A DNA stretch of 64,000 bases, from the NCBI GenBank assembly GCA_964579515.1, contig CAZOHA010000009.1:41-64040 (forward strand), read 5' to 3'. The position numbers and the translations under genes were made by a program. Positions 2,484 through 18,700 of this stretch are shown piece by piece (within the stretch, counting starts at the first letter, position 1; each line of letters begins with the position of its first letter). Below the pieces are notes generated by a model. The model had not been told where the DNA came from. It did not search any database and worked only from the letters and a program-made list of their open reading frames with translations. This DNA is from an uncultured Bacteroides sp. (GTDB taxonomy: Bacteria > Bacteroidota > Bacteroidia > Bacteroidales > GCA-2748055).

Positions 2484-2567
2484 AATTAGGGGTTTTAGCT
2501 CTCTTTACGTTAAAGGAATGAATTGGTTACGACAATTTATCAACGTTTCACCCAAACAAAAGTCCTC

Positions 2568-2575
2568 TATATTTG
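2568..2575 (+). promoter_or_regulatory. Bacteroidota-type -7 promoter box (TATATTTG = TAnnTTTG) upstream of the SulP gene
   Basis: Exact match to TAnnTTTG, 36 nt upstream of ATG 2611. A TTTC (near-TTTG) sits about 20 nt further upstream. Confidence 0.45.
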
Positions 2576-2610
2576 TAGTATGCTTCTGTAACCCGAAAAC
2601 CACTACATCA

Positions 2611-4458
2611 ATGAAGAATCTCTTCGATTTCAAGCATTTCAAGGGAGACCTCTTCGGGGGGATCACCGCAGGGATCGTCGCCTTACCTCTGGCACTCGCC
2701 TTTGGTGTGAGCTCCGGACTGGGTCCGATGGCGGGTCTCTACGGGGCCATCTTCATCAGTTTCTTCGCAGCCCTGTTTGGCGGAACCAACACCCAGATCT
2801 CAGGGCCCACGGCCCCTATGACCGCTGTGAGCATGGTGGTGATCGCCGGTATTGTGGCAGCCAACAACGGGGATGTGGATCAGGCGCTGCCCTACATTCT
2901 GGCGGTATTTTTGGTGGCAGGGCTGATGCAGATCGGACTGGGGGCTCTGGGACTGGGTAAATATATCCGGTTGATCCCCTATCCGGTGGTTTCCGGGTTT
3001 ATGACAGCGATTGGCGTCATTATTATTCTGACCCAGATATTGCCTGCACTCGGCTACTATCCCAAAGAGGATATGGAATATGTGGAACAATTCACCACCG
3101 AAGCGGAGGAAATGGTCATGACGAATATCCTTGAGGAGGAGGTTTCGGAAGGAACCACGATCCGCGAGAGTTTCGAAAACACTATGGAGCGGGGTGAAAG
3201 GATCACCGAAGAGGAGATTCTGCAGGAATCGCGGACACTGGCAGGAACAGAAGCTTCCGGAGTGGTGGGTGCCGTCAGGCTGATACCCCGGGCCGTGCAG
3301 AATATTAGCTGGGTGGAGTTATTTCTGGCCCTCGGGACCATCGTGATCATTTACGGTTTCAAAAGGATCACCAGGGTGGTTCCCAGTACCCTGGTCGCCC
3401 TGCTGGTGATGTCCGGTATTGCCGATCTTTCGGGGATCGACTACCGGCCCGTTGAACGGATCCCCAGCGGTCTTCCCATGCCCAACCTGGATCTGTTCAC
3501 CTCCTTCAGCTTCAGTGCCATCTCACCCTATATTTTTGCAGCGTTCACCCTGGCCATTCTGGGCGCCATCGATTCACTCCTGACATCGGTGGTGGCCGAT
3601 AACATGACCAAGACCCGGCACAAGCCTAACCGGGAGCTGGTGGGTCAGGGGATCGGTAACAGTGTGGCTGCCATTTTCGGGGGGATCCCCGGAGCGGGGG
3701 CCACCATCCGGACCGTGGTCAATATCAATGCCGGAGGGAAAACCCGGTTATCCGGGATGATCGCAGGCCTGCTGCTGTTCCTCACCCTGCTGCTGCTGGG
3801 ACCGGTAGCCTCAAGAATTCCGGCTGCCGTTCTGGCCGGTATCCTGATCACTGTGGGAATTGCCGTAATGGATTATAAAGGACTGAAAGCCATTCCCAAT
3901 ATGCCCAGGGCAGAAGTGGCTATCATGCTCATTGTCCTGGTGCTCGCCTCCTTCTGGAACCTGGTCTACGCAGTGGGGATCGGTCTGGTGATCGCCTCAC
4001 TGATGTTTATGAAAGTGATCGGTGATATCACCGGGGAGTCGTCTGAGATTAAAACCCTGAAAGAAACACCCTGGCCAGATGAGGTGGATTTCCCCGAGGA
4101 GATGAAAGAACATGTCTTCATCAAGCATGTGAACGGCCCTCTGTTCTTCGGATCCACCTCCAATTTCGAAAAGCTGTCCAAACAGATACCCGACCACGCG
4201 GAAGCGGTGGTCATCCGTATGAACAGGGTACCCTATATGGATCAATCGGGTCTCTATGCCATGGAAGATTTCCTGATCGAGCTGGCCAGAAAGAAAAAGA
4301 AAGTGATCCTGGTCGGTTTGCAGAAGCAACCCCGCTACATGCTCGAACGGATCGATGTCATTCCCGACCTGGTCAAACCGGAACAGATCACTACCGGTTT
4401 CAATGACTGTGTGGGCACCCTGAAACAGCAGATCGATGCGATCCCGGAAACCGTCTGA
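2611..4458 (+). CDS. SulP-family anion (sulfate/bicarbonate) transporter with C-terminal STAS domain
   Basis: ORF 2308..4458 trimmed to ATG 2611. MKNLFDFKHFKGDLFGGITAGIVALPLALAFG is the canonical SulP N-terminus. The protein has multiple TM segments, and its C-terminal part (VFIKHVNGPLFFGSTSNF...VVIRMNRVPYMDQSGL) is STAS-like. Confidence 0.9.
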   Translation: MKNLFDFKHFKGDLFGGITAGIVALPLALAFGVSSGLGPMAGLYGAIFISFFAALFGGTNTQISGPTAPMTAVSMVVIAGIVAANNGDVDQALPYILAVFLVAGLMQIGLGALGLGKYIRLIPYPVVSGFMTAIGVIIILTQILPALGYYPKEDMEYVEQFTTEAEEMVMTNILEEEVSEGTTIRESFENTMERGERITEEEILQESRTLAGTEASGVVGAVRLIPRAVQNISWVELFLALGTIVIIYGFKRITRVVPSTLVALLVMSGIADLSGIDYRPVERIPSGLPMPNLDLFTSFSFSAISPYIFAAFTLAILGAIDSLLTSVVADNMTKTRHKPNRELVGQGIGNSVAAIFGGIPGAGATIRTVVNINAGGKTRLSGMIAGLLLFLTLLLLGPVASRIPAAVLAGILITVGIAVMDYKGLKAIPNMPRAEVAIMLIVLVLASFWNLVYAVGIGLVIASLMFMKVIGDITGESSEIKTLKETPWPDEVDFPEEMKEHVFIKHVNGPLFFGSTSNFEKLSKQIPDHAEAVVIRMNRVPYMDQSGLYAMEDFLIELARKKKKVILVGLQKQPRYMLERIDVIPDLVKPEQITTGFNDCVGTLKQQIDAIPETV

Positions 4459-4478
4459 ACCAACAAGTAAGCAACCAT

Positions 4479-5078
4479 ATGGCACCAATTACTCAATCAA
4501 TGCAACAGGAAATGTCTCCGGCAGAAGCCCTGGAGAGACTGACCGGGGGCAACCGCCGGTTCGTCGAAAAAAAACTGAAAGAGACCGATCTGATGGAGCA
4601 GGTGCATGCCACCTCCGGAGGGCAGTATCCATTCGCAGCCATACTTGGCTGCATCGATTCCCGTGTTCCTGCCGAACTGATCTTTGATCAGGGTATCGGG
4701 AACCTGTTCAATGCCCGGGTGGCCGGAAACATTGTCAATAAAGATATCCTGGGCTCCCTGGAGTACTCCTGCAAGGTGGCCGGGTCGAAGGTGATACTGG
4801 TCCTGGGCCACACCTCCTGCGGGGCGGTGACTGCAGCCTGCAATCAGGTGGAAATGGGGAACATCACCCACCTGCTTGCCGGGATCCGGCCCGCTGTGGA
4901 ATCGTTCAGCCAGGAAGAACTGGTGGTGGACGATGTGGCGCGAAAGAATGTCCTTCATTCCATGGAACAGATCAGGCAGGAGAGCCCCATACTGGCAGAG
5001 ATGGAGCAAAAGGGGGAGATCATCATCCGGGGTGCGATGTACGACATCTCCGACGGCCGGGTGAGCTTCCTGGACTGA
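4479..5078 (+). CDS. Beta-class carbonic anhydrase
   Basis: 199-aa ORF with the beta-CA zinc-ligand motifs CIDSRV and GHTSCGAV. It begins 20 nt downstream of the SulP gene. Confidence 0.9.
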   Translation: MAPITQSMQQEMSPAEALERLTGGNRRFVEKKLKETDLMEQVHATSGGQYPFAAILGCIDSRVPAELIFDQGIGNLFNARVAGNIVNKDILGSLEYSCKVAGSKVILVLGHTSCGAVTAACNQVEMGNITHLLAGIRPAVESFSQEELVVDDVARKNVLHSMEQIRQESPILAEMEQKGEIIIRGAMYDISDGRVSFLD

Positions 5079-5133
5079 TCGGGGTGAATCCGGCTGATCT
5101 GGTGTTTCCGGCTGATTGTGTGAATCCGGCTAA

Positions 5134-5147
5134 CCGGGCATGCCCGG
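5134..5147. repeat. Perfect 14-bp palindrome CCGGGCATGCCCGG between the convergent carbonic anhydrase gene and tRNA
   Basis: Read directly from the sequence. It could form a hairpin on either transcript. No adjacent U-tract is present, so a terminator function is uncertain. Confidence 0.3.
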
Positions 5148-5160
5148 CTTACCGGGCTTG

Positions 5161-5237
5161 TGGTGGAGGTAGGGGGAATCGAACCCCCGACCTCGTGATT
5201 GCGAACCACGCGCTCTGGCCATCTGAGCTATACCCCC
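5161..5237 (-). tRNA. tRNA-Ala (anticodon CGC), CCA encoded
   Basis: The reverse complement folds as a 77-nt cloverleaf: acceptor GGGGGTA/TACCTCC with the G3:U70 Ala identity pair, D-stem GCTC/GAGC, anticodon stem CGTGG/TCACG with loop TTCGCAA, T-arm GGGGG-TTCGATT-CCCCC, and 3' ACCA. Confidence 0.93.
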
Positions 5238-5260
5238 GCAGCTGCAAATCTAAGAATATT

Positions 5261-5821
5261 TTACCGGATCCGGCTCCGGGAAAGGGCTGCTGCACGGTTA
5301 TATTCTTCCCGGCACACCATGCAAAACCGGTGTTCCTTCTGCTCCAGGTCCTCCACATAGGTGCTGGAGCGCATCACACAAGCCGGATGGCTGCAGTGGA
5401 TCAGACCGAAGGTATGCCCCAGCTCATGAATGATCACCTTGGTAAACCGCCCGATCAACAGTTCATAATCGGGTTTCAGCCCGTAATGCTCATTTCTCAG
5501 GCGGAAGATAGATACCACTCCTGTGCGCCCGTTCAGATGAGCCTGTCCGAAGATGTAGGTGAGGATGGGAATATAGAGATCGACCCTTGCCATCCCGATC
5601 ACCCTGACCGCCTCGGCCGGGGCACGCTCGGTGATCATTCTCAGTAATTCGTCGGCATCGTACTGACGCCGCACCGGATTATAGAAGTCGCTGATATCCA
5701 GGCTGCACTCCATCAGTTCCACGGGGAAGTGAAGCTCCCGGGTCACGTTCTCGGCCACTCTTTCAGTCAGCTTTTTCTCGAACAACCCGCAGGAAACCAG
5801 TATAATGCTTTGATCGCTCAA
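5261..5821 (-). CDS. Archaemetzincin-like zinc metalloprotease (peptidase M54)
   Basis: 186-aa ORF containing HELGHTFGLIHC (HExxHxxGxxHC), followed by CSHPACVM and FCMVC (the four-Cys second zinc site). It starts 6 nt after the stop of the response-regulator gene. Confidence 0.8.
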   Translation of the reverse strand: MSDQSIILVSCGLFEKKLTERVAENVTRELHFPVELMECSLDISDFYNPVRRQYDADELLRMITERAPAEAVRVIGMARVDLYIPILTYIFGQAHLNGRTGVVSIFRLRNEHYGLKPDYELLIGRFTKVIIHELGHTFGLIHCSHPACVMRSSTYVEDLEQKEHRFCMVCREEYNRAAALSRSRIR

Positions 5822-5827
5822 AGCCGG

Positions 5828-7165
5828 TTATTCCTCTTTTAGTTCGTATTTCCGGATCTTATTATAAAGGGTGGCCCTGTCGACGTTCAGGGCCCGGGCC
5901 GACCGGGAGATGTTCCATTTGTATTTTGAAAGGATCCTGGCGATATGCTTCCGCTCCAGCTCCTCCAGACTCTCAATGGAGCTGCTCATGGCCTCCTGAC
6001 CCATGGGCAGGTCCTTCAGCCTGATCACCTTTCCGTTACCCACCACGATGGCCCTTTCGATCATATTCTCCAGTTCTCTGACATTACCGGGGTATTCGAA
6101 CGATTCCAGGTGTTTCAGTGCGGCCGGTTCGATGGTGATCATATCCCGGCTCATGGAGGTGCAGTACTTCCTGATGAAATGGTCGACCAGGAGAGGGATA
6201 TCCTCGGGGCGCTCCCTGAGCGGCGGGATGCGGATATTGACCACGTTCAGCCGGTAGAAAAGATCCTCCCGGAAGGTCCCGTTTTCCACCATGCTTTTCA
6301 GGTCCCGGTTGGTGGCGCAGATGATCCTGAAATCGGAAGTGATCTCCCTGGAACCCCCGACGCGGACAAAGGTTTTCGTTTCCAGGACCCTCAGCAATTC
6401 CACCTGCATCTTGGATGAAATGGTGCCGATCTCATCCAGGAATATCGTGCCACCATCGGCCATTTCAAACCTCCCCTTCCGGTTAAAGGCGGCACCTGTG
6501 AAAGCGCCTTTTTCATGCCCGAAAAGCTCACTCTCCAGCAGACTTTCGGAAAGGGCACCGCAATGAACACTGATCAGAGGGAAATATTTCCTGGGAGAAT
6601 TGGAATGGATGGCCCTTGCCACCAGTTCTTTGCCCGTGCCGCTCTCCCCGGTGATAATGACCGAAGAGTTGGTCGGGGCCACACTCTCCACCTCCCTGAG
6701 TACCTTCCGGAGCGCCTCACTTTCTCCCACAATATCCTCCACGTCCGTCAGGGTGGTGATCTTATCCCTGAGACCCACATTCTCCTTCTTCAGGGTCACC
6801 TGTGTGGCCGCATTGCGGATCAGGTGAGAGAGATCATCCGGATCAAAGGGTTTGGTCACATAATCGAATGCTCCTTCCTTCAGTGCCTGGACGGCAGTAT
6901 CGACCGAGGCAAAAGCAGTCATAATGATCACTACGGGCTCTCCGGAAAGGGCTTTAATCCGCCTGTGCAGCTCCATCCCGTCCATGCCCGGCATCTTGAT
7001 ATCGACGAGTATAATATCGAAATCCCTGTCATCGAGCAGCTTTAGTGCTTTCTTGGCATCCTCGGCGCACTCGACATGGTATCCCTCCTCGATGAACCAG
7101 TTGTAAAGAGAATCCCGGACCGATTCTTCATCATCGACGATCAACATGGATATTCCTTTATTCAT
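5828..7165 (-). CDS. Sigma-54-dependent response regulator (NtrC family: REC + AAA+ + Fis-type HTH)
   Basis: ORF 5828..7465 trimmed to ATG 7165 (MNKGISMLIVDDEES). It has the receiver-domain motif DIILVDIKMPGMDG, Walker A GESGTGKE, the GAFTGA motif, and the C-terminal HTH ARALNVDRATLYNKIRKY. It overlaps the kinase stop by 8 nt. Confidence 0.9.
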   Translation of the reverse strand: MNKGISMLIVDDEESVRDSLYNWFIEEGYHVECAEDAKKALKLLDDRDFDIILVDIKMPGMDGMELHRRIKALSGEPVVIIMTAFASVDTAVQALKEGAFDYVTKPFDPDDLSHLIRNAATQVTLKKENVGLRDKITTLTDVEDIVGESEALRKVLREVESVAPTNSSVIITGESGTGKELVARAIHSNSPRKYFPLISVHCGALSESLLESELFGHEKGAFTGAAFNRKGRFEMADGGTIFLDEIGTISSKMQVELLRVLETKTFVRVGGSREITSDFRIICATNRDLKSMVENGTFREDLFYRLNVVNIRIPPLRERPEDIPLLVDHFIRKYCTSMSRDMITIEPAALKHLESFEYPGNVRELENMIERAIVVGNGKVIRLKDLPMGQEAMSSSIESLEELERKHIARILSKYKWNISRSARALNVDRATLYNKIRKYELKEE

Positions 7166-8819
7166 GAGATGATGGTTTTTCCTCCGCAAGCGGCAGAATA
7201 ATTGAAATGGTCGTCCCCCTGCCCGGCTCCGAATCCACCTCGATCTTCCCCTGGTGATTCTCCACGATCCCGTGTACAATGGAGAGACCCAGTCCGATCC
7301 CGCTGGTATCGCGTTTGGTGGAATAGAAGGGTTCGAAAATATGGGAAATGTCCCCGGGTGCGATCCCGACCCCGTTATCGGTGACACTCCACCGGATGCG
7401 CTTCTCATCGGGATTGGAAGTGCGGACAGTGATTTCGCCGTTCTCCCGGATCGCCTCCGTGGCATTCACCATGATGGCCACACATACCTGCTTGATCTGG
7501 TTGGGGCTGCAGTGGATCAGGTCATTTTCGGCATGGAAAAGATTCGTCAACTGAATATCGGCGATCTTGATGGAATGCCGCATCAACTTGCAGGTGTCGG
7601 AAAGCAGGCCGTGCAGGTGGCACGGCTCGAAATCCTCCCGGTCCTGGCGGGAGAAATCGAGAAGTCCGCGCACGATATCGCCGCAGCGCTTGGTCTCCGT
7701 CTCGATCAGCTTCAGGTTTTTCAGAATGCTTTCCTTCTTGGGATGATGGAACTCCGGGCGGTCGAGCTGTTTATGGATGAGCCGGTTGTAAACCAGGATC
7801 CCCGACAGGGGGTTATTGATCTCATGGGCCACCGAAGAGGAGAGTTTACCCAGTGAGGCGATGCGCTCCACATGGATCAGTTCGTTCTGGGCGGCAGAGA
7901 GCTCCTCCGACTTTTTCTGCACTTTGTATTCCAGTTGCCGGGACCAGTTTTGCAGCTCTTTGGTGGCCATTTCTATATTATCGAGCATATTGTTGAACGC
8001 CTCGGATACCAGCCTCATGTCATTCAGCAATCCCGGCTTGATCTCCAGCCGGATGGAATGATCTCCGCCGGACACCCTTTCACTGGCCTGAATGAGCGAG
8101 TTGAGCGGCCGTTTGATCCGCCGGCGGGTAAACAGGACCAGGAAAGTGACCATCAGCACAGTGATCAGTGTGGCTAGTAACATAAAATCGGTGGAGGATT
8201 GATCGGCAAATGCATCGAGATCGTCCAGTGGCATGGTGATCAAAAGGGATCCGAGCACAGGCTCATCCTCCGGGTGATAATGGCAGTCGGCCGTGCTGCA
8301 GGATGGTTCATTGAGTATGGACTTTTTGATCAGCAGGTGACGTGCTCCCTCATTCGTCTGGCGGATCCCGCATTCAGGGATATTTTCCACCACCAGGTAA
8401 GCCTTTTCTCCCGGCGGGAACATCGAGGAGATTCCGGAATGACAATCAGTACAGCTGGGATTCCCGTCCAGATCCGGATCCCCGGTCAGGCTCGAGTATG
8501 CCAGAAGGTCGTTCTGGTCGTACATATTGACCTCATCGATCCCCGACATGGTACTGATCATATCCAGGGTTCGCTGCAGCATGGCTTGGTCGTTCTCCAG
8601 CATCGAATAGTAGAGCGATCCCTCCACGATGGAGCTGATCTGGTCCCCGCTGCGGCCGAGGGTCTCATTGAAGAAATCGGTGTAGATGGTACGGAAAACC
8701 AAAAGGAACAGGATGAAGAGAATCAAAAGAGAGCCTGTTATAATGAACACCACCCTCCCGTAAATGGAAGATCTGAACTGGTAGAACTTCCTGAGAAAGC
8801 CCTTCATCGGTCCGCTCAT
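7158..8819 (-). CDS. Sensor histidine kinase (2 TM, periplasmic loop with haem-c binding motifs, HAMP, HisKA, HATPase)
   Basis: 553-aa ORF. TM1 is VVFIITGSLLILFILFLLVF and TM2 is FMLLATLITVLMVTFLVLF. The periplasmic loop holds CTDCH (CXXCH) and CSTADCH (CX4CH). The kinase core has H-box SSVAHEINNPLSG and G-boxes DNGVGI and GIGLGLSIV. Confidence 0.9.
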   Translation of the reverse strand: MSGPMKGFLRKFYQFRSSIYGRVVFIITGSLLILFILFLLVFRTIYTDFFNETLGRSGDQISSIVEGSLYYSMLENDQAMLQRTLDMISTMSGIDEVNMYDQNDLLAYSSLTGDPDLDGNPSCTDCHSGISSMFPPGEKAYLVVENIPECGIRQTNEGARHLLIKKSILNEPSCSTADCHYHPEDEPVLGSLLITMPLDDLDAFADQSSTDFMLLATLITVLMVTFLVLFTRRRIKRPLNSLIQASERVSGGDHSIRLEIKPGLLNDMRLVSEAFNNMLDNIEMATKELQNWSRQLEYKVQKKSEELSAAQNELIHVERIASLGKLSSSVAHEINNPLSGILVYNRLIHKQLDRPEFHHPKKESILKNLKLIETETKRCGDIVRGLLDFSRQDREDFEPCHLHGLLSDTCKLMRHSIKIADIQLTNLFHAENDLIHCSPNQIKQVCVAIMVNATEAIRENGEITVRTSNPDEKRIRWSVTDNGVGIAPGDISHIFEPFYSTKRDTSGIGLGLSIVHGIVENHQGKIEVDSEPGRGTTISIILPLAEEKPSSHE

Positions 8820-8867
8820 TTCCCTGCTCCTGTCGATTGAATTTTTCCCGGAGAAATCGTTAAGATA

Positions 8868-9575
8868 CTAAAGTTCCAGGAACTCCTTCCGGAAACGCTC
8901 CCAAACTTTTCCGTCGAGCTCCGAGAGGGGGAACTCCACAAGCTCACCGCCCTCCTGAAGCACCAGCCCGCGGGAATCTTCCTGCCTCTGGCTCAGAGCA
9001 CCGGAAAGGAAATCCTTGAACCTCACCAGTTCCGATCTGATCCATTCCCTGGCTTCGGTCGCCAGAAAGTACGGCCCGGTCTCCTCTTTCCAGTTCTCCG
9101 GCTCGATCCTGTAAAGCCAGGATCCGTAGGGATCCTCGAACATGGGAGTGCTGTCCTCTTCCAGCGAATGACGGCTCTGCACCACCCGGCCGGAAATGGG
9201 AGATCCGATTTCCAGCTCTTTCCCATCCTGAATGACTCGTGCCAGGATCTCTCCCTTTTTCACAATCGAGCCATCCGCAAGGACCAGTTCCACCCTGACC
9301 CGGCCGGTCAGATGAAGCAGAAGATCATCCAGTCCCACATTGGCCTTACCGGAGCGGGTCAGGTATGCCCAGGTATGATTCCGGCTCAGGAAGACCCCGG
9401 CCGGTATCCGGAGCCTGGCCGGAGAAAGGGCGCCGGACCTCTGCCAGCCGGTCTTCACCTGGACCGGTTTATTAAGGTAGATCCAGAGGGGAATGAGTAG
9501 TACCAGGAAACCGATCACAATCAGGTATTCGATGCCCTTGGTGTCGAAAATGTCCGTATAAACAAATGGTTCCAT
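8868..9575 (-). CDS. Membrane-anchored GcvH-like (glycine-cleavage H / lipoyl-domain fold) protein with a conserved C-terminal extension
   Basis: 235-aa ORF with an N-terminal TM (YLIVIGFLVLLIPLWIYL). GcvH hallmarks are HTWA, VGLDD, SPISGRV and DPYGSWLYRI. Its roughly 190-aa cytoplasmic module is paralogous to the C-terminus of the 11718..13409 product. Confidence 0.75.
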   Translation of the reverse strand: MEPFVYTDIFDTKGIEYLIVIGFLVLLIPLWIYLNKPVQVKTGWQRSGALSPARLRIPAGVFLSRNHTWAYLTRSGKANVGLDDLLLHLTGRVRVELVLADGSIVKKGEILARVIQDGKELEIGSPISGRVVQSRHSLEEDSTPMFEDPYGSWLYRIEPENWKEETGPYFLATEAREWIRSELVRFKDFLSGALSQRQEDSRGLVLQEGGELVEFPLSELDGKVWERFRKEFLEL

Positions 9576-9595
9576 GAGAATGCGATTTATTTGGT

Positions 9596-10825
9596 TCAGT
9601 GATTATCTTTTGCCCACTCGGGGGGATCGCGCAATACAGGCATCCGGCGAACGATCCACCGGAAAATCCATATCTCGACACAGAGTATCGTCAGTGTGAC
9701 CACGATCTCCATCCAGGAAGGAACATAGGGTGTGGCGGCATCCCATTTGAAACCGATGACCGTCACATTGAGCCGGTTCATGATCACTCCGAGCATGGTC
9801 CAGAGAGCGGAGAACTTTATCAGCCGGATATTCATCGTCCGGTAGCTGATAAAAAACAGGATCATCGGCAAAAGGACGAACCCGAGCATCTCCAGCAGGT
9901 ACCATGCACCCATCCTGGTCTGCAGCAGGTTCCAGTTCTTCCCGTGAGCCAGCACCACCACCTGCAGGGCGAAATATACCAGCATGGTCATGGCGCAGAT
10001 CCTGGAAAGGCCGTGGAGGATCCCGTTATGGGCGTGATGGTCCTTCTCGCTGATCTGGTCGAAGAAGACCCTGCGGCTGATAGAACCCTCAAAAATCACC
10101 ATGGAGAGTCCTGCAAAAATGCTGGAGACAAAGAACAGGATGGGAATGAACTCCGAATACCAGAGAGGATGGATCTTATCCCTGGCCATCAGGTAAAGGG
10201 CGCCCAGTCCCGACTGGTGCAGGGTCGACAGGGTGATCCCGAAGATGACCGCCGCAAGGGTCATTCCCGACAGGATCCTGCGGGCCCGTTTCGCCCCGAT
10301 CCATTCCGCAATGGCCGGGGAGAACTCGATCAGCTGCGCAACCATATACAGGAGAAAATGCCAGGCCACCAGAAAGAGGACCGAACTGACCCCAAAACTG
10401 TTACCGATGATGGGATTGATGACATTCCAGGGCTTTCCCAGGTCAAGCAACAGGGCCCCGGCATAAAACACGTAGGCCAGGAAACCGTTCAGCACGGTGA
10501 CCCGCACAATGGGACGGTACTTCTCCATATTGAGGATATATACCAGGAAGGTCACCACATAGGCTCCCCCTGCGAATGCCACCCCGGTCACCACGTCAAA
10601 TCCGATCCAGAGACCCCACGGAACTTCCTGGGTTAAATTGGTGATGGAACCGATCCCTTTGGCAAAGCGGATCACGATCAGTACGATGCCGGTCATGATA
10701 ATGGGAACCGAAATCATATTAAAGGGAGTGAACACCCTTCCCCTGGGTCTGAAAGCTTCCGCAAGGAATTTTCCGACGGGTCTCCCGTCATTGTCGCGGG
10801 AAATGGTATGGTCTGTGCTATTCAT
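9596..10825 (-). CDS. NrfD/PsrC/HybB-family polytopic membrane protein (quinone-interacting subunit)
   Basis: ORF 9596..10912 trimmed to ATG 10825 (MNSTDHTISRDNDGRP), which overlaps the upstream FeS gene stop by 8 nt. It has about 10 predicted TM helices. The sequence character and its position directly after an NrfC-like gene are typical of the NrfD family. Confidence 0.75.
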   Translation of the reverse strand: MNSTDHTISRDNDGRPVGKFLAEAFRPRGRVFTPFNMISVPIIMTGIVLIVIRFAKGIGSITNLTQEVPWGLWIGFDVVTGVAFAGGAYVVTFLVYILNMEKYRPIVRVTVLNGFLAYVFYAGALLLDLGKPWNVINPIIGNSFGVSSVLFLVAWHFLLYMVAQLIEFSPAIAEWIGAKRARRILSGMTLAAVIFGITLSTLHQSGLGALYLMARDKIHPLWYSEFIPILFFVSSIFAGLSMVIFEGSISRRVFFDQISEKDHHAHNGILHGLSRICAMTMLVYFALQVVVLAHGKNWNLLQTRMGAWYLLEMLGFVLLPMILFFISYRTMNIRLIKFSALWTMLGVIMNRLNVTVIGFKWDAATPYVPSWMEIVVTLTILCVEIWIFRWIVRRMPVLRDPPEWAKDNH

Positions 10826-11690
10826 GATCTTCCTCCTTTTTGGTATTCTTTTTTGTGGCATTGTGGATCCCCAGCAGCATGGCCGGCCACAGAATAAAAA
10901 TGGAAGGTACACTGTAGAGGAACCCTTTGGTCAGCTCGGGGTAGGAACTCTTCTGGATCTTTGTATTGAAAGCGAGCTCCTCGAATGGAACGGGCGAGAT
11001 ATACAAAAATCCGGTACCTCCGGCCTCATGCTCCCCGTAAATATGATCGTGGTACCAGTCAGGCATGTCATGGATCCGCTGCCTGGCTTCGGCGATCATC
11101 TCCCTGCGTGTTCCGAAGGTGAGTGCCCCGGCGGGACAATTCTCCACACAGGCAGGGATCTGGCCCTGTTGCAGCCGTTCGAAGCACATGTCGCATTTGG
11201 AGATCTTCGGATTCGGGCTGTGGTATTCGAACTTGGGAACATCGAAAGGACAGGACACCATGCAATACCTGCATCCCATGCATTTATCCTCACTCCATAC
11301 CACCGGTCCGCCGGGGGTCTTATGCATGGCCCTGGTCAGACATGCGGAAGCACAGGCAGGCTGGTTGCAATGCATGCACTGGTTTTTCACATAAACCTCC
11401 CCCTGAGAGGTTTCATAGGCATTGATAACGGAACGCCGGTTCTCATTGGCTTTTCGGGATACACCCGGAACGGGCAGATCGTTCTTCAGATCGGGCTCGG
11501 GAAGGCCGTGCTCTTCGGCACATACCAGCTCACAGGTCTGGCATCCGCCACACATATTGGCATCGAAAAGAACAGCCATCATCTCACCATCCTCTTTTTC
11601 CGGCCGGGCAGCACCCAGTTCCTTTCCTGTTCCCAGGGCCACACCTGTCAAACCGAGCGCCCTGAAAAAATTTCTTCTGTTGATTGCCAT
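10818..11690 (-). CDS. Tat-exported 4x[4Fe-4S] ferredoxin-type subunit (NrfC/PsrB/HybA family)
   Basis: 290-aa ORF with the twin-arginine signal MAINRRNFFRALGLTGVALG. Four cluster motifs are present: CGGCQTCELVC, CMHCNQPACASAC, CMGCRYCMVSCP and CDMC...CVENCP. Confidence 0.88.
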   Translation of the reverse strand: MAINRRNFFRALGLTGVALGTGKELGAARPEKEDGEMMAVLFDANMCGGCQTCELVCAEEHGLPEPDLKNDLPVPGVSRKANENRRSVINAYETSQGEVYVKNQCMHCNQPACASACLTRAMHKTPGGPVVWSEDKCMGCRYCMVSCPFDVPKFEYHSPNPKISKCDMCFERLQQGQIPACVENCPAGALTFGTRREMIAEARQRIHDMPDWYHDHIYGEHEAGGTGFLYISPVPFEELAFNTKIQKSSYPELTKGFLYSVPSIFILWPAMLLGIHNATKKNTKKEEDHE

Positions 11691-11717
11691 GTTATTGAAT
11701 GTTTTTTGAGTAGTTGA

Positions 11718-13409
11718 TTAAGATCTGTTGAGAAATTTAAGCTGGAACTCTTCCCACTCGACCGGACCGAAATCCTCCAGAGCGGCGCTTTTGATCTCCC
11801 CGCCATCCTGGAGAACGACAGAGGGATCCTTTTTGTCCCTGCAACAACTCACCAGGAAATCCCTCAATCTGGAAATCTCACTCTTCAGCCAGTTGCGGTA
11901 CTTTTCACCCAGCAGAAAGTACTTCAGCTCTTCCATCCAGTTAAATGGCTGGACCAGGTACACCCATCCGCCGGCATATGGTTCCCGGTTCAGCATGCCG
12001 GCATCCTTTAACAGCACCGCATTGTACTCCTCCACTATGCCCGACACGGGCGATTTGATCTCGACCTGCTTTCCGTCCTGAACCAGTTTCACCAGGGATT
12101 CCCCCCTGCGGACCGTTTCACCCGGTTCTTTCATGATCACACGGGTAAGCCGGCCGGTGACATGCTGGATAAAATCATCCACACCGATCCGCACCCGGCC
12201 GTCCTTCTCCATGAAGGTCCAGGTGTGGGAGCGGTCGTAAAAAAGACCTTCGGGATGCGTGAGCCTGTCATGGGCAAATACCGGCTTATCGGACAGATCT
12301 GATTCATACATGCCACCCTTCCTCTTTCTGCCCCTGAAGGAGATCAGTACCGCCAGAGCGGAGATCAAAAGAATCCCGAGCAGGATGATCAGGATGATTT
12401 TCGTCACCGGTGCCACCAGTGGAACCACCCGGGCGGTTTCCTCTTCCTCCCCGGCCGCGAGCTGCTCCATACCCCGGTTTCTCTCCGCATACTCAATTCC
12501 CAGGAATCCCAGTGAAGCCAGATTCTCCTGTCCACCCGACAGCATCCAGCTTGCGAAGACCCTGCCATCCTCAGTGGCCGGAGGCTGTTCCGCCACCATA
12601 TATATTCTGTTATAGAGGGCATCGGGATATCTTCCCACGTAGATCCCGTGAGAAAGGTCGCTGCAGCACCGGAATATGTCCTCGAAGTGATCGATCTGCC
12701 CGTTTCCGTCAAGATCGATCGGCACCAGGCTGATCCCCGACTCCATGCCGGATTCGTGCCGCTTCATCAAAGCAGCCAGTGAGCAAAAACCCATGGCATC
12801 CCTCTCTGAAGCCACACGGTCGAGAAGCCCTTCCGGATCTTCAGGTGCCGTCCCGAGGAGATCCACGGGTTTCACCCCTATAAATTCAGAAAGATAGGTC
12901 CTCCCGCACTGGTTAGCCGGAAGAAAGGCCTCTACCCTGCCTGGATCATCCGTTCCGAGTATGCTCCCCCAGGTTATTTGCTCCCCGCCGGTAAAAATGG
13001 ACCGAAACTCCTGAGGAGTGATCCCTCTGTCCAGAATTTGTTCGCGGTGAGGATTCTGTGCATTGATAAAAGGCACCACCGCATCACGCCCGATCACCAT
13101 CCGGCAGGAGGGTTTGATCCCCTCAAATATCCGGCAGCCCTGATATACCAGTGCAAAGCTCCGCTTATTCAAATTTTCTCCAACCTTATCATCGGGCACG
13201 GCAACCACATGGACCGGGATGCCGGGATGTTCCTTCTGAAAAGCAGAGACCTGACGGATGGCCAGGTTCTCCAGTTCCGGGGTACAGATCAGCTTCAGGT
13301 GTTCTCCCTCCCCGTTTTCATTCAACCCGGACTGGGCGAAGCATGCAGTCATTGCCAGGCATACCAGCGCGACCGAGGTCATCATCTTCTTTGTTGTAGT
13401 TTTCATCAC
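11718..13409 (-). CDS. Fusion protein: exported PstS-like (PBP_like_2) periplasmic binding domain, one TM helix, and a cytoplasmic GcvH-like module
   Basis: 563-aa ORF with signal/lipoprotein-like N-terminus MMKTTTKKMMTSVALVCLAMTAC. The PstS-family motif ITPQEFRSIFTGGEQITWGSILG is present. The TM helix IILIILLGILLISALAVLISF is followed by RGRKRKGG. The GcvH-like part carries HTWTF, IGVDD, SPVSGIV and EPYAGGWVYLVQP. Confidence 0.8.
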   Translation of the reverse strand: MMKTTTKKMMTSVALVCLAMTACFAQSGLNENGEGEHLKLICTPELENLAIRQVSAFQKEHPGIPVHVVAVPDDKVGENLNKRSFALVYQGCRIFEGIKPSCRMVIGRDAVVPFINAQNPHREQILDRGITPQEFRSIFTGGEQITWGSILGTDDPGRVEAFLPANQCGRTYLSEFIGVKPVDLLGTAPEDPEGLLDRVASERDAMGFCSLAALMKRHESGMESGISLVPIDLDGNGQIDHFEDIFRCCSDLSHGIYVGRYPDALYNRIYMVAEQPPATEDGRVFASWMLSGGQENLASLGFLGIEYAERNRGMEQLAAGEEEETARVVPLVAPVTKIILIILLGILLISALAVLISFRGRKRKGGMYESDLSDKPVFAHDRLTHPEGLFYDRSHTWTFMEKDGRVRIGVDDFIQHVTGRLTRVIMKEPGETVRRGESLVKLVQDGKQVEIKSPVSGIVEEYNAVLLKDAGMLNREPYAGGWVYLVQPFNWMEELKYFLLGEKYRNWLKSEISRLRDFLVSCCRDKKDPSVVLQDGGEIKSAALEDFGPVEWEEFQLKFLNRS

Positions 13410-13460
13410 TTCTATGGTTTAATATCAGTTTGAGGGTACCTTTGGACACACCGCTCAGAA

Positions 13461-13476
13461 TTCAAAGATTGTGCCA
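13461..13476 (-). promoter_or_regulatory. Candidate sigma-54 (-24/-12) promoter for the 13409..5261 operon
   Basis: The minus strand reads TGGCACAATCTTTGAA. TGGCAC and the GG-N10 spacing are canonical, but the -12 element is TTGA rather than TTGC. It sits about 52 nt upstream of the ATG at 13409, and a sigma-54 activator is encoded in the operon. Confidence 0.35.
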
Positions 13477-13632
13477 CACACATCTTAAATCCTGGTTCAC
13501 TGATACTTACAATCATTTATCTGGTTTTGGCATTTCCAGAATGTGATGTTTTTTTCAACACTACAATTTGAATAGGGGTGTGAACAGGTTCTTTCTTAGA
13601 GCATTACGCATTATGTCGATTTTTTTAGCATC

Positions 13633-13649
13633 TGTTGTAATTTACAACA
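13633..13649. promoter_or_regulatory. 17-bp palindrome TGTTGTAA-T-TTACAACA in the divergent intergenic region (possible activator or operator site)
   Basis: Perfect 8-bp inverted repeat around a single central base. It lies about 160 bp upstream of the putative -24 element and about 130 bp upstream of ATG 13777. Confidence 0.3.
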
Positions 13650-13776: not shown

Positions 13777-15732
13777 ATGGTACCGGACATTTTAAAGACA
13801 TTATCGGAGAAGGGAGTGGAACTGCCGGAACAGGTGGCCGGTCTGCTGCGCTCATGCAGAAGCTTCCAGTGTTTCAGTACTACGGCAGAGCTGGTCGATG
13901 CCTCCACGGCGGGTATTGAAAATAAAGAGTTCCGGGTAACCTATCCTCTGCCGGGAGAAAACCGGGAGGTGACCGAAGCGATCGTTCACCGGGTGAGGAA
14001 CGGAATATCGGTCAACTATCCGGAACCCTATATGCGGCGCAGGGATCCCTCCACCATGTCGATCGCCGATGCCACCCCCACCGATAAGAAACTATTCAGC
14101 GATAAATACGGTTACGAGTTCGAGGACCTCAGAAAAGAGACCCTTGACTGGTTAAAAGAGCAGGACCTGGCCATGTTCTTCTATTTCGCCGGTCGGATGG
14201 GGATCGGTTCCCTGGGCCTGGCGATTGTTCCTTCCAACTCCGCCTTTTTCGCCATGGGATTGTCCATGTTGCAGGAGATGGTCGATCCGGTGACCATCGC
14301 CGACGGGACGGAGATTAAATCGGTGATCTTCGTGGCACCGGTGTTCAGACATACCCATTTCGACGGAAAACAGGTAGTGGTCCATAACCGGACAGAACAC
14401 GTGCATGAGCTGTATGCATACAATCTCTATCCCGGTCCCAGTGCCAAAAAAGGATTATACGGGGTTTTGCTGTCCCAGGGTGAAAAAGAACAGTGGATCA
14501 CGGCTCACTGCTCGGCGGTGCAGTCGATCTCTCCTTACGACAATGTGACCACCTTCATGCACGAAGGAGCCAGCGGGGGAGGAAAAAGCGAGATGCATCA
14601 GCACATTATCCGGGAACCGGATGGAAGGGTACTGCTGGGGACCAACACGTTCAGCGGAGAGGAGCGGTTCATTACCATTCCCAGGTTCTGTACCTTCCTC
14701 CCCATCGCCGATGACATGGCCTTCTGCCATCCGTCCCACCAGCGGGAGGACGGTAAACTGAGGATCCTGGATGCTGAGAACGCCTGGTTCGTGCGGGTTG
14801 ACAGCGTAACCGCTTACGGGGACGATCCGTTCCTGGAAAAAGCCACCATCCATCCCGGTAAACCTTTGCTGTTCCTGAATATTGATTCACAGCCCGAATC
14901 CACCGCCCTCATCTGGGAACATATTGAGGATGAACCCGGAAAACCGTGCCCCAATCCCCGGGTCATCCTTCCGCGGGATACGGTTCCCAATGTCATCGAA
15001 AATCCCGTATCGGTCGATATCCGGAGTTTCGGGATCCGGTCACCTCTCTGCTCGGCAGAAGACCCCACCTACGGGATCATCGGGATGTTCCATATTCTGC
15101 CCCCGGCCCTGGCATGGCTCTGGAGGCTGGTAGCCCCCCGCGGCCATAAAAACCCCAGCATCGTCTCCACCGGCCAGATGGAGAGCGAGGGGGTCGGATC
15201 CTACTGGCCCTTTGCCACCGGTAAACGGGTGGTCCATGCCAATCTCCTGCTGAAGCAGATCATCGAGACACCCAGGACCACCTTCACCCTGGTTCCCAAC
15301 CAGCATATCGGGGTATGGAAGGTGGGCTTCAAGCCTCAGTTGCTGATGCGTGAATACCTCACCCGCAGGGGGGTGGCCAGGTTACGGAGCGACCAGTATC
15401 AGCCGGCACGCTGTCCGTTGCTGGGGTATGAACTGAATTACCTGACCCTGGAAGGCTCCAAGATCCCCTCCCGGTTCCTCAAGGTCTACAATCAGACCGA
15501 AGTTGGGGTGGAAGGATATGATGCCGGCGCCGCCCAGCTGAGGGAATTCTTTCACAGTCAGCTTCATCAGTTCCTCCAGGAGGATCTGTTGCAGACGGGC
15601 CGGAGAATTATCGAGGCATGCCTTTCCAATGCCAGTGTCGAGGAGTACAACGAAATCGTGCCCATGACTTACCAGTACAGGTTCACCAACATGGAATCGT
15701 ACGAACAGACCTCCCTCTTCAACGGGCAGTGA
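13777..15732 (+). CDS. Conserved hypothetical protein with an HprK/PEPCK-like P-loop (possibly the DUF4914 family)
   Basis: 651-aa ORF with no signal peptide. It contains HEGASGGGKSEM, which resembles the GxSGxGKSE P-loop of HPr kinase/PEPCK-fold enzymes. The DUF4914 family name is from memory and is unverified. Confidence 0.7.
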   Translation: MVPDILKTLSEKGVELPEQVAGLLRSCRSFQCFSTTAELVDASTAGIENKEFRVTYPLPGENREVTEAIVHRVRNGISVNYPEPYMRRRDPSTMSIADATPTDKKLFSDKYGYEFEDLRKETLDWLKEQDLAMFFYFAGRMGIGSLGLAIVPSNSAFFAMGLSMLQEMVDPVTIADGTEIKSVIFVAPVFRHTHFDGKQVVVHNRTEHVHELYAYNLYPGPSAKKGLYGVLLSQGEKEQWITAHCSAVQSISPYDNVTTFMHEGASGGGKSEMHQHIIREPDGRVLLGTNTFSGEERFITIPRFCTFLPIADDMAFCHPSHQREDGKLRILDAENAWFVRVDSVTAYGDDPFLEKATIHPGKPLLFLNIDSQPESTALIWEHIEDEPGKPCPNPRVILPRDTVPNVIENPVSVDIRSFGIRSPLCSAEDPTYGIIGMFHILPPALAWLWRLVAPRGHKNPSIVSTGQMESEGVGSYWPFATGKRVVHANLLLKQIIETPRTTFTLVPNQHIGVWKVGFKPQLLMREYLTRRGVARLRSDQYQPARCPLLGYELNYLTLEGSKIPSRFLKVYNQTEVGVEGYDAGAAQLREFFHSQLHQFLQEDLLQTGRRIIEACLSNASVEEYNEIVPMTYQYRFTNMESYEQTSLFNGQ

Positions 15733-15798: not shown

Positions 15799-18700
15799 AT
15801 GCATGTACCTCCTGTCGCCCTCTGTTTTCTTCTGATATCTGCAACGCTCTTCGCTCAGCCGGCCACCGGATTCTATGATGATTTCGAGGATGGCCGGCCG
15901 GATACCATTGTCAATGACTCCACATTCCTCCTCTGGAAAGCCGATCACCCGCGAACCTTCGGGATCACGGAGACCGGGGGCACACTTCAAATTGCCTATA
16001 CCAGAACCGACACCAGCCAGCCATGGGACAACTTCAACTTCACCCCGCCCATCCCGGTGGATGTGGCTTTCAATCCGGTGATTTCGCTGAAGATCCAATC
16101 GGATGTATCCCATATTTTTACCGTAAAACCGATCTATTCCAACGGGAAATCCAGATTGATCCAACAGGATATCCCCGGTGACGAAAGCTGGCATAGCTGC
16201 AGCTTTCAGCTTTCGGAGACTAACTATTCAGGAGGTGTGCTGGAAAAGATCTACTTCTATTTCGACGGAGGATCCAGCGCACTCCAATCCGGCCTGGTGC
16301 TGTTCGATGAGTTCCGGATCGCCGGAGTGACCGTCCCGGTGAACCAGCTGGAAGCACATCTGATCGATTCGTCGACGGTGGAGCTTACCTGGGAAACGGA
16401 GGATACCTCCCTGGTAGGTCATTTTAATGTTTACCGCGGATCCGGGCCATTCTTTCCGGCCGGGGAGGCTTCCAGGATCGGTGAGACCCGTGCGCTGAGC
16501 TACCTGGATACCGGACTGGTGAACAACACGACCTATTTCTACAAGGTATCAGCCACCGATAAAGAGGACAAGGAGCATCCTCCGGCTTCGGTCAGCATCC
16601 GAACCTCTGTTCCGGGGGCCATTCCCTCTCTGGAGGTCATTCCGCAGCAAACCGGTTCCGTGGGCAGGTATGAGAAGGTTGAACTATGGGTTCAGATGTC
16701 CGATGCCTCCTACACCAATCCTTTCGACCCGGATGAAATCGACCTCTATGCCTGGTTCCTGGGGCCTGAAGGCGATTCCATAAAGATCAATGGTTTCTAC
16801 GACAATTACCAGGCAGCTGACCAGTGGAAGATCCGTTTCGCCGCGCCTTCGGAAGGAACCTGGGAATACCGGGTATACGCCACAGATGTGGACGGGACCG
16901 GATCCGGTGCACCGGGAACATTCGAAGTGTCGGCATCGGAGCATAAAGGGTGGCTGAGGATTTCTGAAACGAATCCCAATTACCTGGAGCATCACGACGG
17001 CACCGGCTTTTACGGGATCGCCGCGTACTATCCGTGGAATGTCACCGAAACCCGGCTGGATCAGTTCCGGGCGGTGAAGGGCAATATATTCGGGTACTGG
17101 GACTGCACCTACGATAACGAGGGAAACGGAGGAGGAAGGTACCTGCTGGAATCCATGGATTCGGGGCTCGGCAGGTACGACCAGCGCAAAGCGGCCAGGA
17201 TCGACCAGGTATTGTCATGGGCCGAGGAAAGAGATATGAAGGTGATGCTGGCACTGTGGGTCCACCCCTATCTCCGGATCGAAAATGTACCCTGGGACAA
17301 CGGGCAGTGGAACGAGTACAATCCCTACAGCACCATTGTGGAGGTGGAGGATTTCTATACCGACAGTGTGGCCCTCTGCTATCAGGAAAAGCATCACCGG
17401 TACGTGCTCGCCCGGTGGGGATACAGCCGCGCACTGGGGATCTGGGAACTCATCAATGAGATCCACGGCACATCGGGCTGGGTATCGGATCGCGGGGCGG
17501 CCAAGAGGTGGGTGGAAAGGGTCCACACCTATTTCCGCGAGAATGACCCATATTCACGGCCCACCACCGCCTCCTTCGGAGGTAGTGAAGGGGTCTCCCA
17601 CTACTCGGAGAACGACCTTCTGGGAAGCATGCCCAATGTTCACTTCTACGAGAAGCATGGCTGGCCAACGCCCTATCCGGAAGACCTGGTCCGGAGCGGA
17701 CTGGAGAACATGGTCCGGCTCGCCCGGAGCCTGAAAAGCAAAGGCAACCGTCCTGCCTTTCTGGGCGAGGCGGGTTACTATTCGATGCTGGCCGATGTGG
17801 AGACCAAAGCCTATACCTGGGAATTTCACAACACCTTCTGGGCAGGACTCACGAACGGACTGGCCACCACACCTTTCTGGTGGGAATTCAACAAAGCCGA
17901 CATCTTCACCCCGGAACGCATGCAGCTCTACTCCCACCTGGAAGGATTTGCCGGGGATCTCGATCTGAACCGGCATCCATGGACCCGCTCGGACATATCG
18001 GTCCGGCAGGCTGACGGCTATTTCATGGACTCCGGGAAGAGCGGATTCGGCTGGTTAAAGACCTATCACGGTTCCGCCGCAGCCGGCAGTGCACTCTCCA
18101 TCCGCAACACCTCACTGGAAAACGGGACCTGCTTGCTTGAATGGTATGATACCTGGTCAGGACAATTTACACACACCGACACTACCTACTCGGTATCCGG
18201 GCTCACCTGGGCCATGGTACCCGGTCAGACGGAGCGGGAGGACGCTGCCTTCAGGTTACGTTCCACGGAACCCGGAGGTGCAGCCAGCCGGATCGTTCTC
18301 CGCCTGGTGGAGACGGACACCCTGGTGCCCGGGCCCTTTCCATGGTCACCGGGAGAAGACTCCCTCGTTTATAAAATCGCCTGTTTTGTAACGGACGGAG
18401 AAAACCTTCTGGATGTGGGCTATGCGGGACCTGTGGAAATAAAGATATGGGCGGAAGGTCTGTCTGATTCGCTTCAGCTCGGGACAGAACTGGAGAATGG
18501 CGGACAGGTATTCGATTATCCGTTCTCCGACACCATTCCTGCTTTGATGGTGGCTTCCATACCGGGACTGGGATCCGATACGCTCTTCCTGGGCGGTGCC
18601 ACAGGGCCTCTGACCGGTATCCGGACCCTTCCATCGCCTTCGCCGGAGCTGGCGTGCTATCCGAATCCGTTTCACCGGGAAACCGCCATTGTCTATACTG

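Follow-up and report, generated by a model that had tools for sequence, protein, structure and literature searches.

A conserved seven-gene operon of Bacteroidales combining an NrfC/NrfD-type redox module with two membrane-tethered GcvH-fold proteins

Organisation of the operon

NrfD-type modules anchor many of the enzymes of anaerobic respiration, and the catalogue of the systems that employ them has been thought to be largely known. The locus described here points to a gap in that catalogue: it is a seven-gene operon (g1 to g7) on the minus strand of a 64-kb stretch of DNA from contig CAZOHA010000009.1 (the window in what follows), in which an NrfC/NrfD-type pair (g2 and g3) lies between two membrane-tethered proteins with a GcvH fold (g1 and g4), followed by a histidine kinase (g5), an NtrC-type sigma-54 regulator (g6) and an archaemetzincin (g7). 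The genes, domains and control elements are listed below in the direction of transcription, the gene coordinates being those of the open reading frame (ORF) listing.

13633..13649, minus strand: distal enhancer-like dyad TGTTGTAAATTACAACA, perfect, 173 nt upstream of the -24 element; putative g6 site
13542..13560, minus strand: proximal imperfect dyad TGTTGAAAAAAACATCACA, 84 nt upstream of the -24 element
13461..13476, minus strand: sigma-54-type -24/-12 promoter TGGCAC-AATCT-TTGAA, 70 nt upstream of the g1 ATG
11718-13406, minus strand: g1, PstS-fold domain, transmembrane helix and GcvH-fold domain; alternative starts GTG 13409 or ATG 13385
12679-12714, minus strand: EF-hand-type loop within g1
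10818-11690, minus strand: g2, predicted exported ferredoxin of NrfC/HmcB/HybA type
9596-10825, minus strand: g3, predicted NrfD-family membrane subunit
8868-9575, minus strand: g4, transmembrane helix and GcvH-fold domain
7158-8819, minus strand: g5, histidine kinase
7713-8696, minus strand: sensor domain of g5 (residues 42-211)
5828-7165, minus strand: g6, NtrC-type regulator
5261-5821, minus strand: g7, archaemetzincin, final gene of the operon

From g1 to g7 the spacers are 27, -8, 20, 48, -8 and 6 nt, the stop of g2 overlapping the start of g3 by 8 nt and the stop of g5 likewise overlapping the start of g6. A first-pass annotation, made from the letters of the DNA, had described seven consecutive minus-strand genes with these spacers; recomputation from the ORF coordinates agrees with it exactly, and all of its domain calls were borne out by profile searches. 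Position 13476, the right edge of the stretch that it described, is the first base of the TGGCAC-N5-TTGA element and not the end of a gene. The other boundary of the operon is a tRNA-Ala(CGC) gene identified by Rfam (5161-5237, minus strand), 23 nt 3' of the g7 stop, which is the sole element that the Rfam scan returned. A 187-aa plus-strand ORF (5084-5647), which overlaps both the tRNA gene and g7, is probably spurious.

Conservation and distribution

A set of 82 related loci was fetched and all of them were re-annotated with the seven window proteins. The order g1-g2-g3-g4-g5-g6-g7 on one strand is kept in about 70 of the 82, which is essentially every locus long enough to show it, and these order-keeping loci span different Bacteroidales families, so that the neighbourhood described in the first-pass annotation recurs across related genomes. 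Genes g1-g4 are contiguous in all loci where the contig covers them, and the archaemetzincin gene directly follows g6 in about 69 related loci. The proposal that the seven genes form a single unit is sustained both by this conserved order and by a sigma-54-type promoter found solely upstream of g1.

Two loci depart from the usual arrangement. In L001, a 6.4-Mb JGI contig, the g5-g7 module lies about 4 kb upstream of g1-g4 (1-2014 versus 6128-10714), with unrelated DUF4143 and EAD11 genes inserted between the two, and in L074, from a metagenome-assembled genome (MAG) of Mariniphaga, the 10 kb that follow g4 on its downstream side contain no such module. The structural (g1-g4) and regulatory (g5-g7) halves of the operon are therefore separable.

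All-against-all clustering of the ORFs in the flanks of the 82 loci yielded no further conserved neighbour, the best family being present in 8 of them, and no catalytic subunit, cytochrome or lipoate ligase is shared by these flanks. Since no other neighbour is conserved, the conserved unit consists of exactly seven genes, with no catalytic partner in cis. The first-pass annotation had already called attention to an NrfC/NrfD pair standing without such a partner, and its observation can now be extended: neither the operon nor the rest of the 64-kb window contains one, and the flanks of the 82 loci have none.

As regards distribution, the g4 family gives more than 900 database matches, the top ones being full-length and about 50% identical, and all the named matches come from Bacteroidales or Bacteroidota. 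In a collection where each species is represented by a single genome, a scan detected 452 encoded relatives or more, from which 80 loci were kept; these belong to Bacteroidales, with a single exception labelled Omnitrophica. The carriers include Prolixibacteraceae, Marinilabiliaceae, Lentimicrobiaceae, Salinivirgaceae, Draconibacterium, Mariniphaga and many MAGs, and the habitats represented among the kept loci are sediments, groundwater and aquifers, digesters and hydrothermal sites. Moreover, an exhaustive profile search (E <= 1e-30) gathered 464 clusters at 50% identity, among which two architectures only were found, one of about 235 aa (g4 type) and one of about 540-595 aa (g1 type).

The NrfC/NrfD-type core

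The product of g2 begins with a twin-arginine (Tat) signal, NRRNFF, matches Fer4_11 with 77.5 bits and ends in a C-terminal transmembrane anchor helix (residues 257-275). Its 16 cluster cysteines are 99-100% conserved among 76 sequences (the window protein and 75 orthologues). A Tat signal of its own is a feature of the ferredoxins HybA, HmcB and NrfC, while those of the DmsB type hitch-hike. Among the NCBIfam models, g2 scores 322.2 bits with HmcB (cut-off 420) and 231.3 bits with HybA (cut-off 263), in both cases below the equivalog cut-off, and its closest solved chain in a PDB sequence search is FdnH (1kqf_B). By these features g2 is a predicted Tat-exported ferredoxin with four [4Fe-4S] clusters, of the NrfC/HmcB/HybA type.

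The match of g3 to the NrfD family (PF03916) reaches 49.1 bits against a cut-off of 25.8, with residues 62-355 covering profile positions 3-305 of 313. Here too the equivalog cut-offs are not attained, HmcC giving 406.5 bits (cut-off 550) and HybB 255.7 bits (cut-off 450). Nine hydrophobic segments exceed the hydropathy threshold and a weaker one lies at about 340-360, which gives about ten transmembrane helices; no haem or Fe-S motif was seen on reading the sequence, and a sequence search among the solved structures gave no match. On this evidence g3 is a predicted NrfD-family quinone/quinol membrane subunit of the HmcC/HybB type. It is very highly conserved among the orthologues and, together with the conservation of the 16 cysteines of g2, this indicates that the electron-transfer core is intact.

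The GcvH-fold proteins g1 and g4

In g1, a signal peptide and a periplasmic PstS-fold domain are followed by a transmembrane helix (337-355), a tether of about 25 residues, a cytoplasmic GcvH-fold domain and a C-terminal helical extension. The smaller g4 consists of a 14-residue periplasmic N-terminus, a transmembrane helix, a tether, a cytoplasmic GcvH-fold domain and a C-terminal extension like that of g1. According to hydropathy and the distribution of charge, the PstS-like domain, the kinase sensor and the N-terminal 14 residues of g4 face the periplasm, and the two GcvH-like domains the cytoplasm. The N-terminus of g4, FxYxxIFDTKGIEY, is invariant among orthologues. A 454-aa protein found in the search of representatives (P0203) combines a shortened PstS-like domain, the g4-type motif YHNIYETKGIEY, a transmembrane helix and a GcvH module, and the position of the motif directly after the periplasmic binding-protein domain supports a periplasmic location for the N-terminus of g4.

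The relationship to H proteins is clear in profiles as well as in structures. GCV_H (PF01597) is matched with 70.2 bits by g1 and 41.8 bits by g4, the cut-off being 22.2. The AlphaFold2 models have a mean predicted local distance difference test (pLDDT) of 83 for g4 and 82 for g1, and Foldseek aligned them to the solved H proteins 1onl, 3a8k and 3ab9 with target-normalised TM-scores (TMt) of 0.88-0.90 and root-mean-square deviations of 1.5-1.9 A, g1 reaching up to 0.88. In PDB sequence searches both proteins retrieved soluble GcvH only, and Foldseek gave no match to a membrane complex. The identity of 37% between g4 and residues 375-562 of g1 (over 181 residues, E = 2e-45) shows the two to be paralogues that share both the GcvH domain and the extension; the latter, of 75 residues, has an invariant LQ[DE]GGE...W..F motif and no match among Pfam families. 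The assignment as GcvH-like made in the first-pass annotation accordingly holds, and homology and topology agree with its description of two paralogous cytoplasmic H-protein-like modules bracketing g2 and g3. The tethers of about 25 residues are of low confidence in both models, which suggests that the GcvH-fold domains are tethered and probably mobile.

The same annotation had gone on to propose that these modules act as swinging-arm carriers in the cytoplasm. In its developed form this explanation holds that the lysine of g1, and of g4 where present, carries lipoate or a related prosthetic group, and that the tethered domains move between enzymes of the cytoplasm and the NrfD subunit with a load of reducing equivalents, or of an acyl or aminomethyl group; dithiol chemistry would in this way be linked to ion translocation or to the quinone pool. 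A true GcvH fold with both GCV_H scores above threshold speaks for it, as do the flexible tethers, which resemble lipoyl-domain linkers, and the Gly-Lys pair G445-K446 of g1, invariant in 50/50 and 67/67 sequences (117 rows in two alignments); by textbook potentials, electron transfer from dihydrolipoamide to menaquinone would moreover be thermodynamically downhill.

The details of the lysine hairpin do not agree with such a role. Gapless alignment to the GcvH of E. coli and T. thermophilus puts the lipoyl-lysine on G445 in g1 and on G118 in g4, so that the hairpin lysine of both proteins stands at +1 from the canonical one in a hairpin of the same length as that of GcvH. In lipoyl domains, a shift of the target lysine by one residue reportedly abolishes lipoylation. 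The residues after the lysine (Q/E/R, then L/V) also misfit the lipoyl-site pattern as it is generally given, and 13 of 83 g4 orthologues have R, G, N, T or H instead of the lysine. Both proteins score far below the GcvH equivalogs, with 61.6 (g1) and 30.3 bits (g4) against 115.85 for TIGR00527 and 69.4 and 38.4 bits against 117 for NF002270. The 82 loci have no linked gene for a lipoate ligase and no linked gcvT, gcvP or lpd, and neither the window nor the related loci contain a canonical gcvH for comparison. Finally, the NrfD subunit has no cofactor on its cytoplasmic side, and the periplasmic ferredoxin would be left without a role. NrfD-type subunits are described as lacking a cofactor able to carry electrons across the membrane to a cytoplasmic arm (PMC8076601 and family knowledge). 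The carrier proposal is thus weakened by a lysine that is out of register in both proteins and dispensable in g4, and by the lack of a linked ligase. As judged from the alignments, g4 is not an obligate cofactor carrier; g1 is probably not one either, its invariant lysine leaving the possibility.

The PstS-fold domain of g1

The N-terminal domain of g1 matches PBP_like_2 with 26.5 bits in the whole protein and 29.2 bits when isolated (cut-off 27), and Foldseek relates it to 4gd5, 1twy and 4exl at TMt 0.72-0.75 (E = 1e-10 to 1e-12). At the position of the PstS anion loop its N-terminal loop reads C[ST]PEL, where 40 of 50 sequences have an acidic residue (E/D); on reading of the sequences, the second Gly/Ser loop is unconserved. 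The usual anion-binding loops appear to have been lost, and with the loops so altered the binding of phosphate is unlikely. The exported solute-binding domain recognised in the first-pass annotation therefore stands as regards its fold, while solute binding is unproven.

A second feature of the domain is a canonical EF-hand-type loop of 12 residues, D231-x-[DN]-G-[DN]-G-x-[ILV]-[DEG]-x-F-E242. D231 and E242 are invariant in 50/50 homologues and Cys208 is nearly so; the presence of the loop alone explains why the Pfam EF-hand matches are weak (E = 0.16-0.29). It would be more plausible for the loop to be a structural Ca2+ site and for the domain to serve in docking or in some other ligand role.

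Promoter, regulator, kinase and protease

The operon is preceded by a candidate sigma-54 promoter. With a position weight matrix derived from TGGCAY-N5-TTGR sites, 65 of 67 loci score above the 99th percentile of shuffles upstream of g1, the sites typically lying 40-100 nt before the g1 start in the 67 upstream regions. In the related loci the motif was matched 64 times upstream of g1 and 0 times in the g4-g5 gap, and across the whole window it occurs once on the operon strand. A simple scan for sigma-70 promoters and terminators gave results at chance level.

Further upstream lies a dyad of the form (G)TGTTGAA / TTCAACA(C). Its hexamers, GTGTTG and TGTTGA among them, occur in 53-61 of 65 loci, where shuffles would lead one to expect 4-10, and they keep to two constant positions, one near -83 and the other near -172 to -182. 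Strict dyads, TGTT[GT]-N5-9-[AC]AACA, reach 4.8 per kb over the 230 nt that precede the promoter, versus 0.05 per kb elsewhere (63 loci), an enrichment of about 95-fold, and their positions cluster at -160 to -190 and -90 to -100. A -24/-12 promoter with two enhancer sites is the textbook layout for an activator of the NtrC type.

Such an activator is encoded by g6, which matches Sigma54_activat (237 bits), Response_reg (112 bits) and HTH_8 (42 bits). Its translation contains GAFTGA and GESGTGKE, and the combination of receiver, AAA+ and HTH_8 domains is that of a bacterial enhancer-binding protein. A PADLOC search for anti-phage defence gave only generic AAA+ matches, for g6. As g6 is conserved together with the operon, it is the obvious candidate activator, which points to positive autoregulation: g6 would bind the dyads and control the transcription of its own operon.

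In the kinase g5, two transmembrane helices flank a periplasmic domain of 170 residues, after which come HAMP, HisKA and HATPase domains. Two motifs, C123-x2-C126-H127 and C174-x4-C179-H180-x-H182, lie in the periplasmic domain; C123, C126, C174, C179, H180, H182 and also M73 are present in 79/79 orthologues, H127 and C150 in 77/79. The histidine immediately after the second cysteine in both motifs favours two covalently attached c-type haems over a Cys4 metal site, and the mixture of CxxCH and Cx4CH is that of cytochrome c3-type proteins, the usual partners of HmcB-type ferredoxins. An identity with Cache_haem/DUF3365 was considered for the sensor domain and ruled out, there being no Pfam match even at E < 10; nor is there a sequence match in the PDB, and the domain may define a new family of periplasmic sensor domains. 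A homologue search with the sensor domain alone returned 13 fragments, all of the same g5 orthologues.

The last gene, g7, encodes an archaemetzincin, with 158.9 bits for NF033823 (cut-off 145) and 79.5 bits for Peptidase_M54. HELGHTFGLIH and a Cys4 motif (C-x4-C...C-x2-C) are found in its translation, and the family is one of cytoplasmic zinc metalloproteases.

Proposed mechanism and alternative explanations

The reading that we prefer, and to which we give a probability of roughly 0.4, is that the operon encodes an inducible, self-regulated inner-membrane redox complex of four subunits, which would pass electrons between menaquinone and the periplasm, would contain two non-catalytic pseudo-H-proteins and would be switched on by a haem kinase and an NtrC-type regulator. 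At its centre, g2 and g3 would connect the menaquinone pool with a redox partner in the periplasm, electrons being exchanged between the two. Since no molybdo-enzyme or hydrogenase is linked, a haem protein, most likely of the c type, or else a small molecule would probably take this part, and the sole candidate within the operon would be the putative di-haem domain of the kinase. The PstS-fold domain might cap or dock on the iron-sulfur subunit, or bind a small ligand, in the place of a catalytic subunit. The GcvH folds, for their part, may serve as non-lipoylated structural or regulatory subunits at the cytoplasmic face of NrfD, in contact with it for instance through the basic hairpin residue, and not as carriers of electrons or acyl groups. 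The tight gene spacing, the strict co-occurrence and the invariant periplasmic peptide of g4 argue that g1 and g4 are stoichiometric subunits. As to control, a periplasmic redox or gas signal at the kinase haems would lead to phosphorylation of g6, and phosphorylated g6, acting on the two TGTTG-N-CAACA dyads, would turn on the sigma-54 promoter, with the production of more complex and of its own regulators.

Several points weigh against this reading. Complex formation, quinone binding and the direction of electron flow are what we infer, and no periplasmic partner has been identified in the operon, the window or the 82 loci. Haem attachment in g5 is deduced from the motifs, with a Cys4 metal site as the alternative, and the loss of the anion-binding loops in g1 comes from reading the sequence, not from superposition. 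The invariance of G445-K446 in g1 exceeds what a structural hairpin usually needs and leaves room for covalent modification. The -12 element is TTGA or TTGG, with C changed to A or G, and not the canonical TTGC. Lastly, the always-present archaemetzincin is accounted for neither by this reading nor by its rivals.

The best of the alternatives, although unlikely, is that g1-g4 form the input of a sensory system, reporting the redox state of the menaquinone pool to the kinase haems, with the PstS fold adding a ligand input and the outputs lying elsewhere. The kinase is the sole protein of the operon with haem motifs, and subunits of the HmcB or NhcB type normally dock multihaem cytochromes with the same mix of CxxCH and Cx4CH, as is known for the family. 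Kinase, regulator and complex are also conserved together in about 70 loci, and a binding protein combined with a kinase and a sigma-54 regulator is an arrangement said to be known from AioXSR and TorTSR. What makes this explanation less attractive is the position of the promoter and dyads: they precede g1, so that the complex itself would be the regulated output. The arrangements in L001 and L074 indicate, in addition, that the structural genes can stand alone, and a four-cluster ferredoxin with a ten-helix NrfD subunit would be a costly input when ArcB-like kinases are said to sense quinones directly.

A rather unlikely explanation, more conventional in nature, would have g2 and g3 anchor a periplasmic enzyme whose genes lie in another part of the genome, for instance a hydrogenase, a formate dehydrogenase or a multihaem reductase, with g1, g4 and g7 as factors for its assembly, quality control or turnover. 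In its favour, g2 and g3 score best with HmcBC and HybAB, modules that work with a cytochrome or a hydrogenase; among solved ferredoxins FdnH is the nearest, and the operon does encode a protease. However, in the characterised NrfD systems the catalytic genes are encoded together with the anchor (PMC8076601), and none is linked in the 82 loci. Furthermore, g1 and g4 are conserved as strictly and spaced as tightly as g2 and g3, and the periplasmic N-terminus of g4, being invariant, speaks for a stoichiometric contact and not for the transient role of a chaperone.

The lipoyl or acyl swinging-arm relay comes last and, with the lysine out of register, dispensable in g4 and accompanied by no ligase, must be considered improbable. 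We would regard with the same strong doubt the narrower idea that the Gly-Lys of g1 is a site for a covalent prosthetic group (lipoate attached by an unrecognised route, or another acyl or thiol cofactor), which would make g1 a true swinging arm to NrfD. If true, cytoplasmic dithiol or acyl chemistry would be coupled to quinone reduction or ion translocation, g4 would be a degenerate partner, the modified lysine or the tether might be a target of the archaemetzincin, and both a new class of respiratory complex and a new role for the H-protein fold would have been found.

The operon could reveal a new link to the quinone pool or a new form of periplasmic redox sensing in the abundant polymer-degrading Bacteroidales, and could show a non-canonical use of the lipoyl-carrier fold. 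The conserved promoter and dyads and the dedicated two-component system make it directly testable in cultured Draconibacterium, Mariniphaga and Prolixibacteraceae.

Genes around the operon

Upstream of the operon and divergent from it, a plus-strand gene (13777-15732) encodes a DUF4914 protein, matched over its full length with 943 bits; the two share the 370-nt intergenic region that holds the enhancer dyads, and in no other locus does a DUF4914 gene adjoin the operon. On the other side, and convergent with the operon, a SulP-family transporter with a STAS domain is followed, 20 nt on, by a beta-carbonic anhydrase (2308-5078, plus strand), which looks like a bicarbonate-uptake pair; because the GTG at 2308 overlaps a neighbouring minus-strand gene, the true start of the SulP gene is probably further downstream. 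None of these neighbours of the window (DUF4914, carbonic anhydrase, SulP) is found at the other loci, save for a weak carbonic-anhydrase match in L039 (26% identity).

The window also encodes many proteins sorted by the type IX secretion system (T9SS; Por_Secre_tail) and glycoside hydrolases (GH), at 213-2483, 15799-21240, 22866-24722, 31025-32404, 39498-42576 and 46513-48351. Among the hydrolases are a GH5 cellulase-like enzyme and a GH26 mannanase fused to an N-acylglucosamine 2-epimerase fold, and DUF5060 is also present. The T9SS-sorted proteins and the glycoside hydrolases suggest that the host is a polysaccharide-degrading member of the Bacteroidales, an order to which the taxonomy of the related loci also assigns it.

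Comparison with known systems

The first-pass annotation had known of no described complex of this composition, and the searches agree: full-text searches of the literature found no description of an NrfC/NrfD pair together with GcvH-like proteins, the composition is absent from the review of NrfD complexes (PMC8076601), and sequence and Foldseek searches found no such complex among the solved structures. Two membrane-tethered H-protein folds in the absence of a catalytic subunit are, as far as found, unprecedented for an NrfD-type complex.

The closest likeness is to the Hmc complex of Desulfovibrio (HmcB/HmcC and the related NhcBC), which provides the best NCBIfam matches of both g2 and g3. 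In both cases a Tat-exported, anchored protein with four [4Fe-4S] clusters and a ten-helix NrfD-type subunit are followed by the gene of a small single-pass protein, and in both there is a periplasmic haem-motif protein with a mix of CxxCH and Cx4CH. Unlike Hmc, the operon, the window and the 82 loci have no multihaem cytochrome HmcA/NhcA, no cytochrome b HmcE and no HdrD-like HmcF; the single-pass proteins carry GcvH folds here, and the host is a member of the Bacteroidales and not a sulfate reducer.

The second-best match is HybA/HybB of the hydrogenase-2 of E. coli, with the same association of a ferredoxin bearing its own Tat signal and an NrfD-type anchor. Here the scores lie below the cut-offs and, in contrast to HybAB, no HybO or HybC gene occurs in the operon, the window or the 82 loci. 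The review of NrfD complexes names no Bacteroidetes among the species that contain HybB (PMC8076601). With the equivalog scores not reached and the defining partner subunits absent, the system is not a member of either Hmc or Hyb.

As regards the GcvH-fold proteins, GcvH itself and LbpA, a lipoate-binding protein of sHdr sulfur oxidation, have the same fold as g1 and g4 and the signature residues HxW, G.xD, PxSG and DPY..GW in common with them. Unlike both, g1 and g4 are tethered to the membrane, bear the 75-residue extension, have their lysine at +1 and have no linked ligase; the sHdr clusters carry ligase genes of their own. A passage of PMC6067878 on LbpA indicates that H-protein paralogues can enter respiratory sulfur metabolism.

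A periplasmic cap without cofactors on an iron-sulfur subunit has precedents in Qrc (QrcB) and in alternative complex III (the N-terminal part of ActB), known from the family and from PMC8076601. The cap is there a degenerate molybdopterin enzyme, whereas the proposed docking in the present operon would involve a PstS fold that shares its polypeptide with a transmembrane helix and a GcvH fold.

Finally, AioXSR and TorTSR likewise join a periplasmic binding-protein fold to a kinase and a sigma-54 NtrC-type regulator, although in the present system that fold is part of a membrane subunit and not a free protein. Covalent haem c in periplasmic sensor domains has precedents in DcrA, GSU0582/GSU0935 and Cache_haem; g5 differs from these in lying outside DUF3365/Cache_haem and in carrying two haem-type motifs. 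Set beside all these systems, the operon has accessory subunits that are, as far as found, unprecedented, built around an electron-transfer core that is recognisable.

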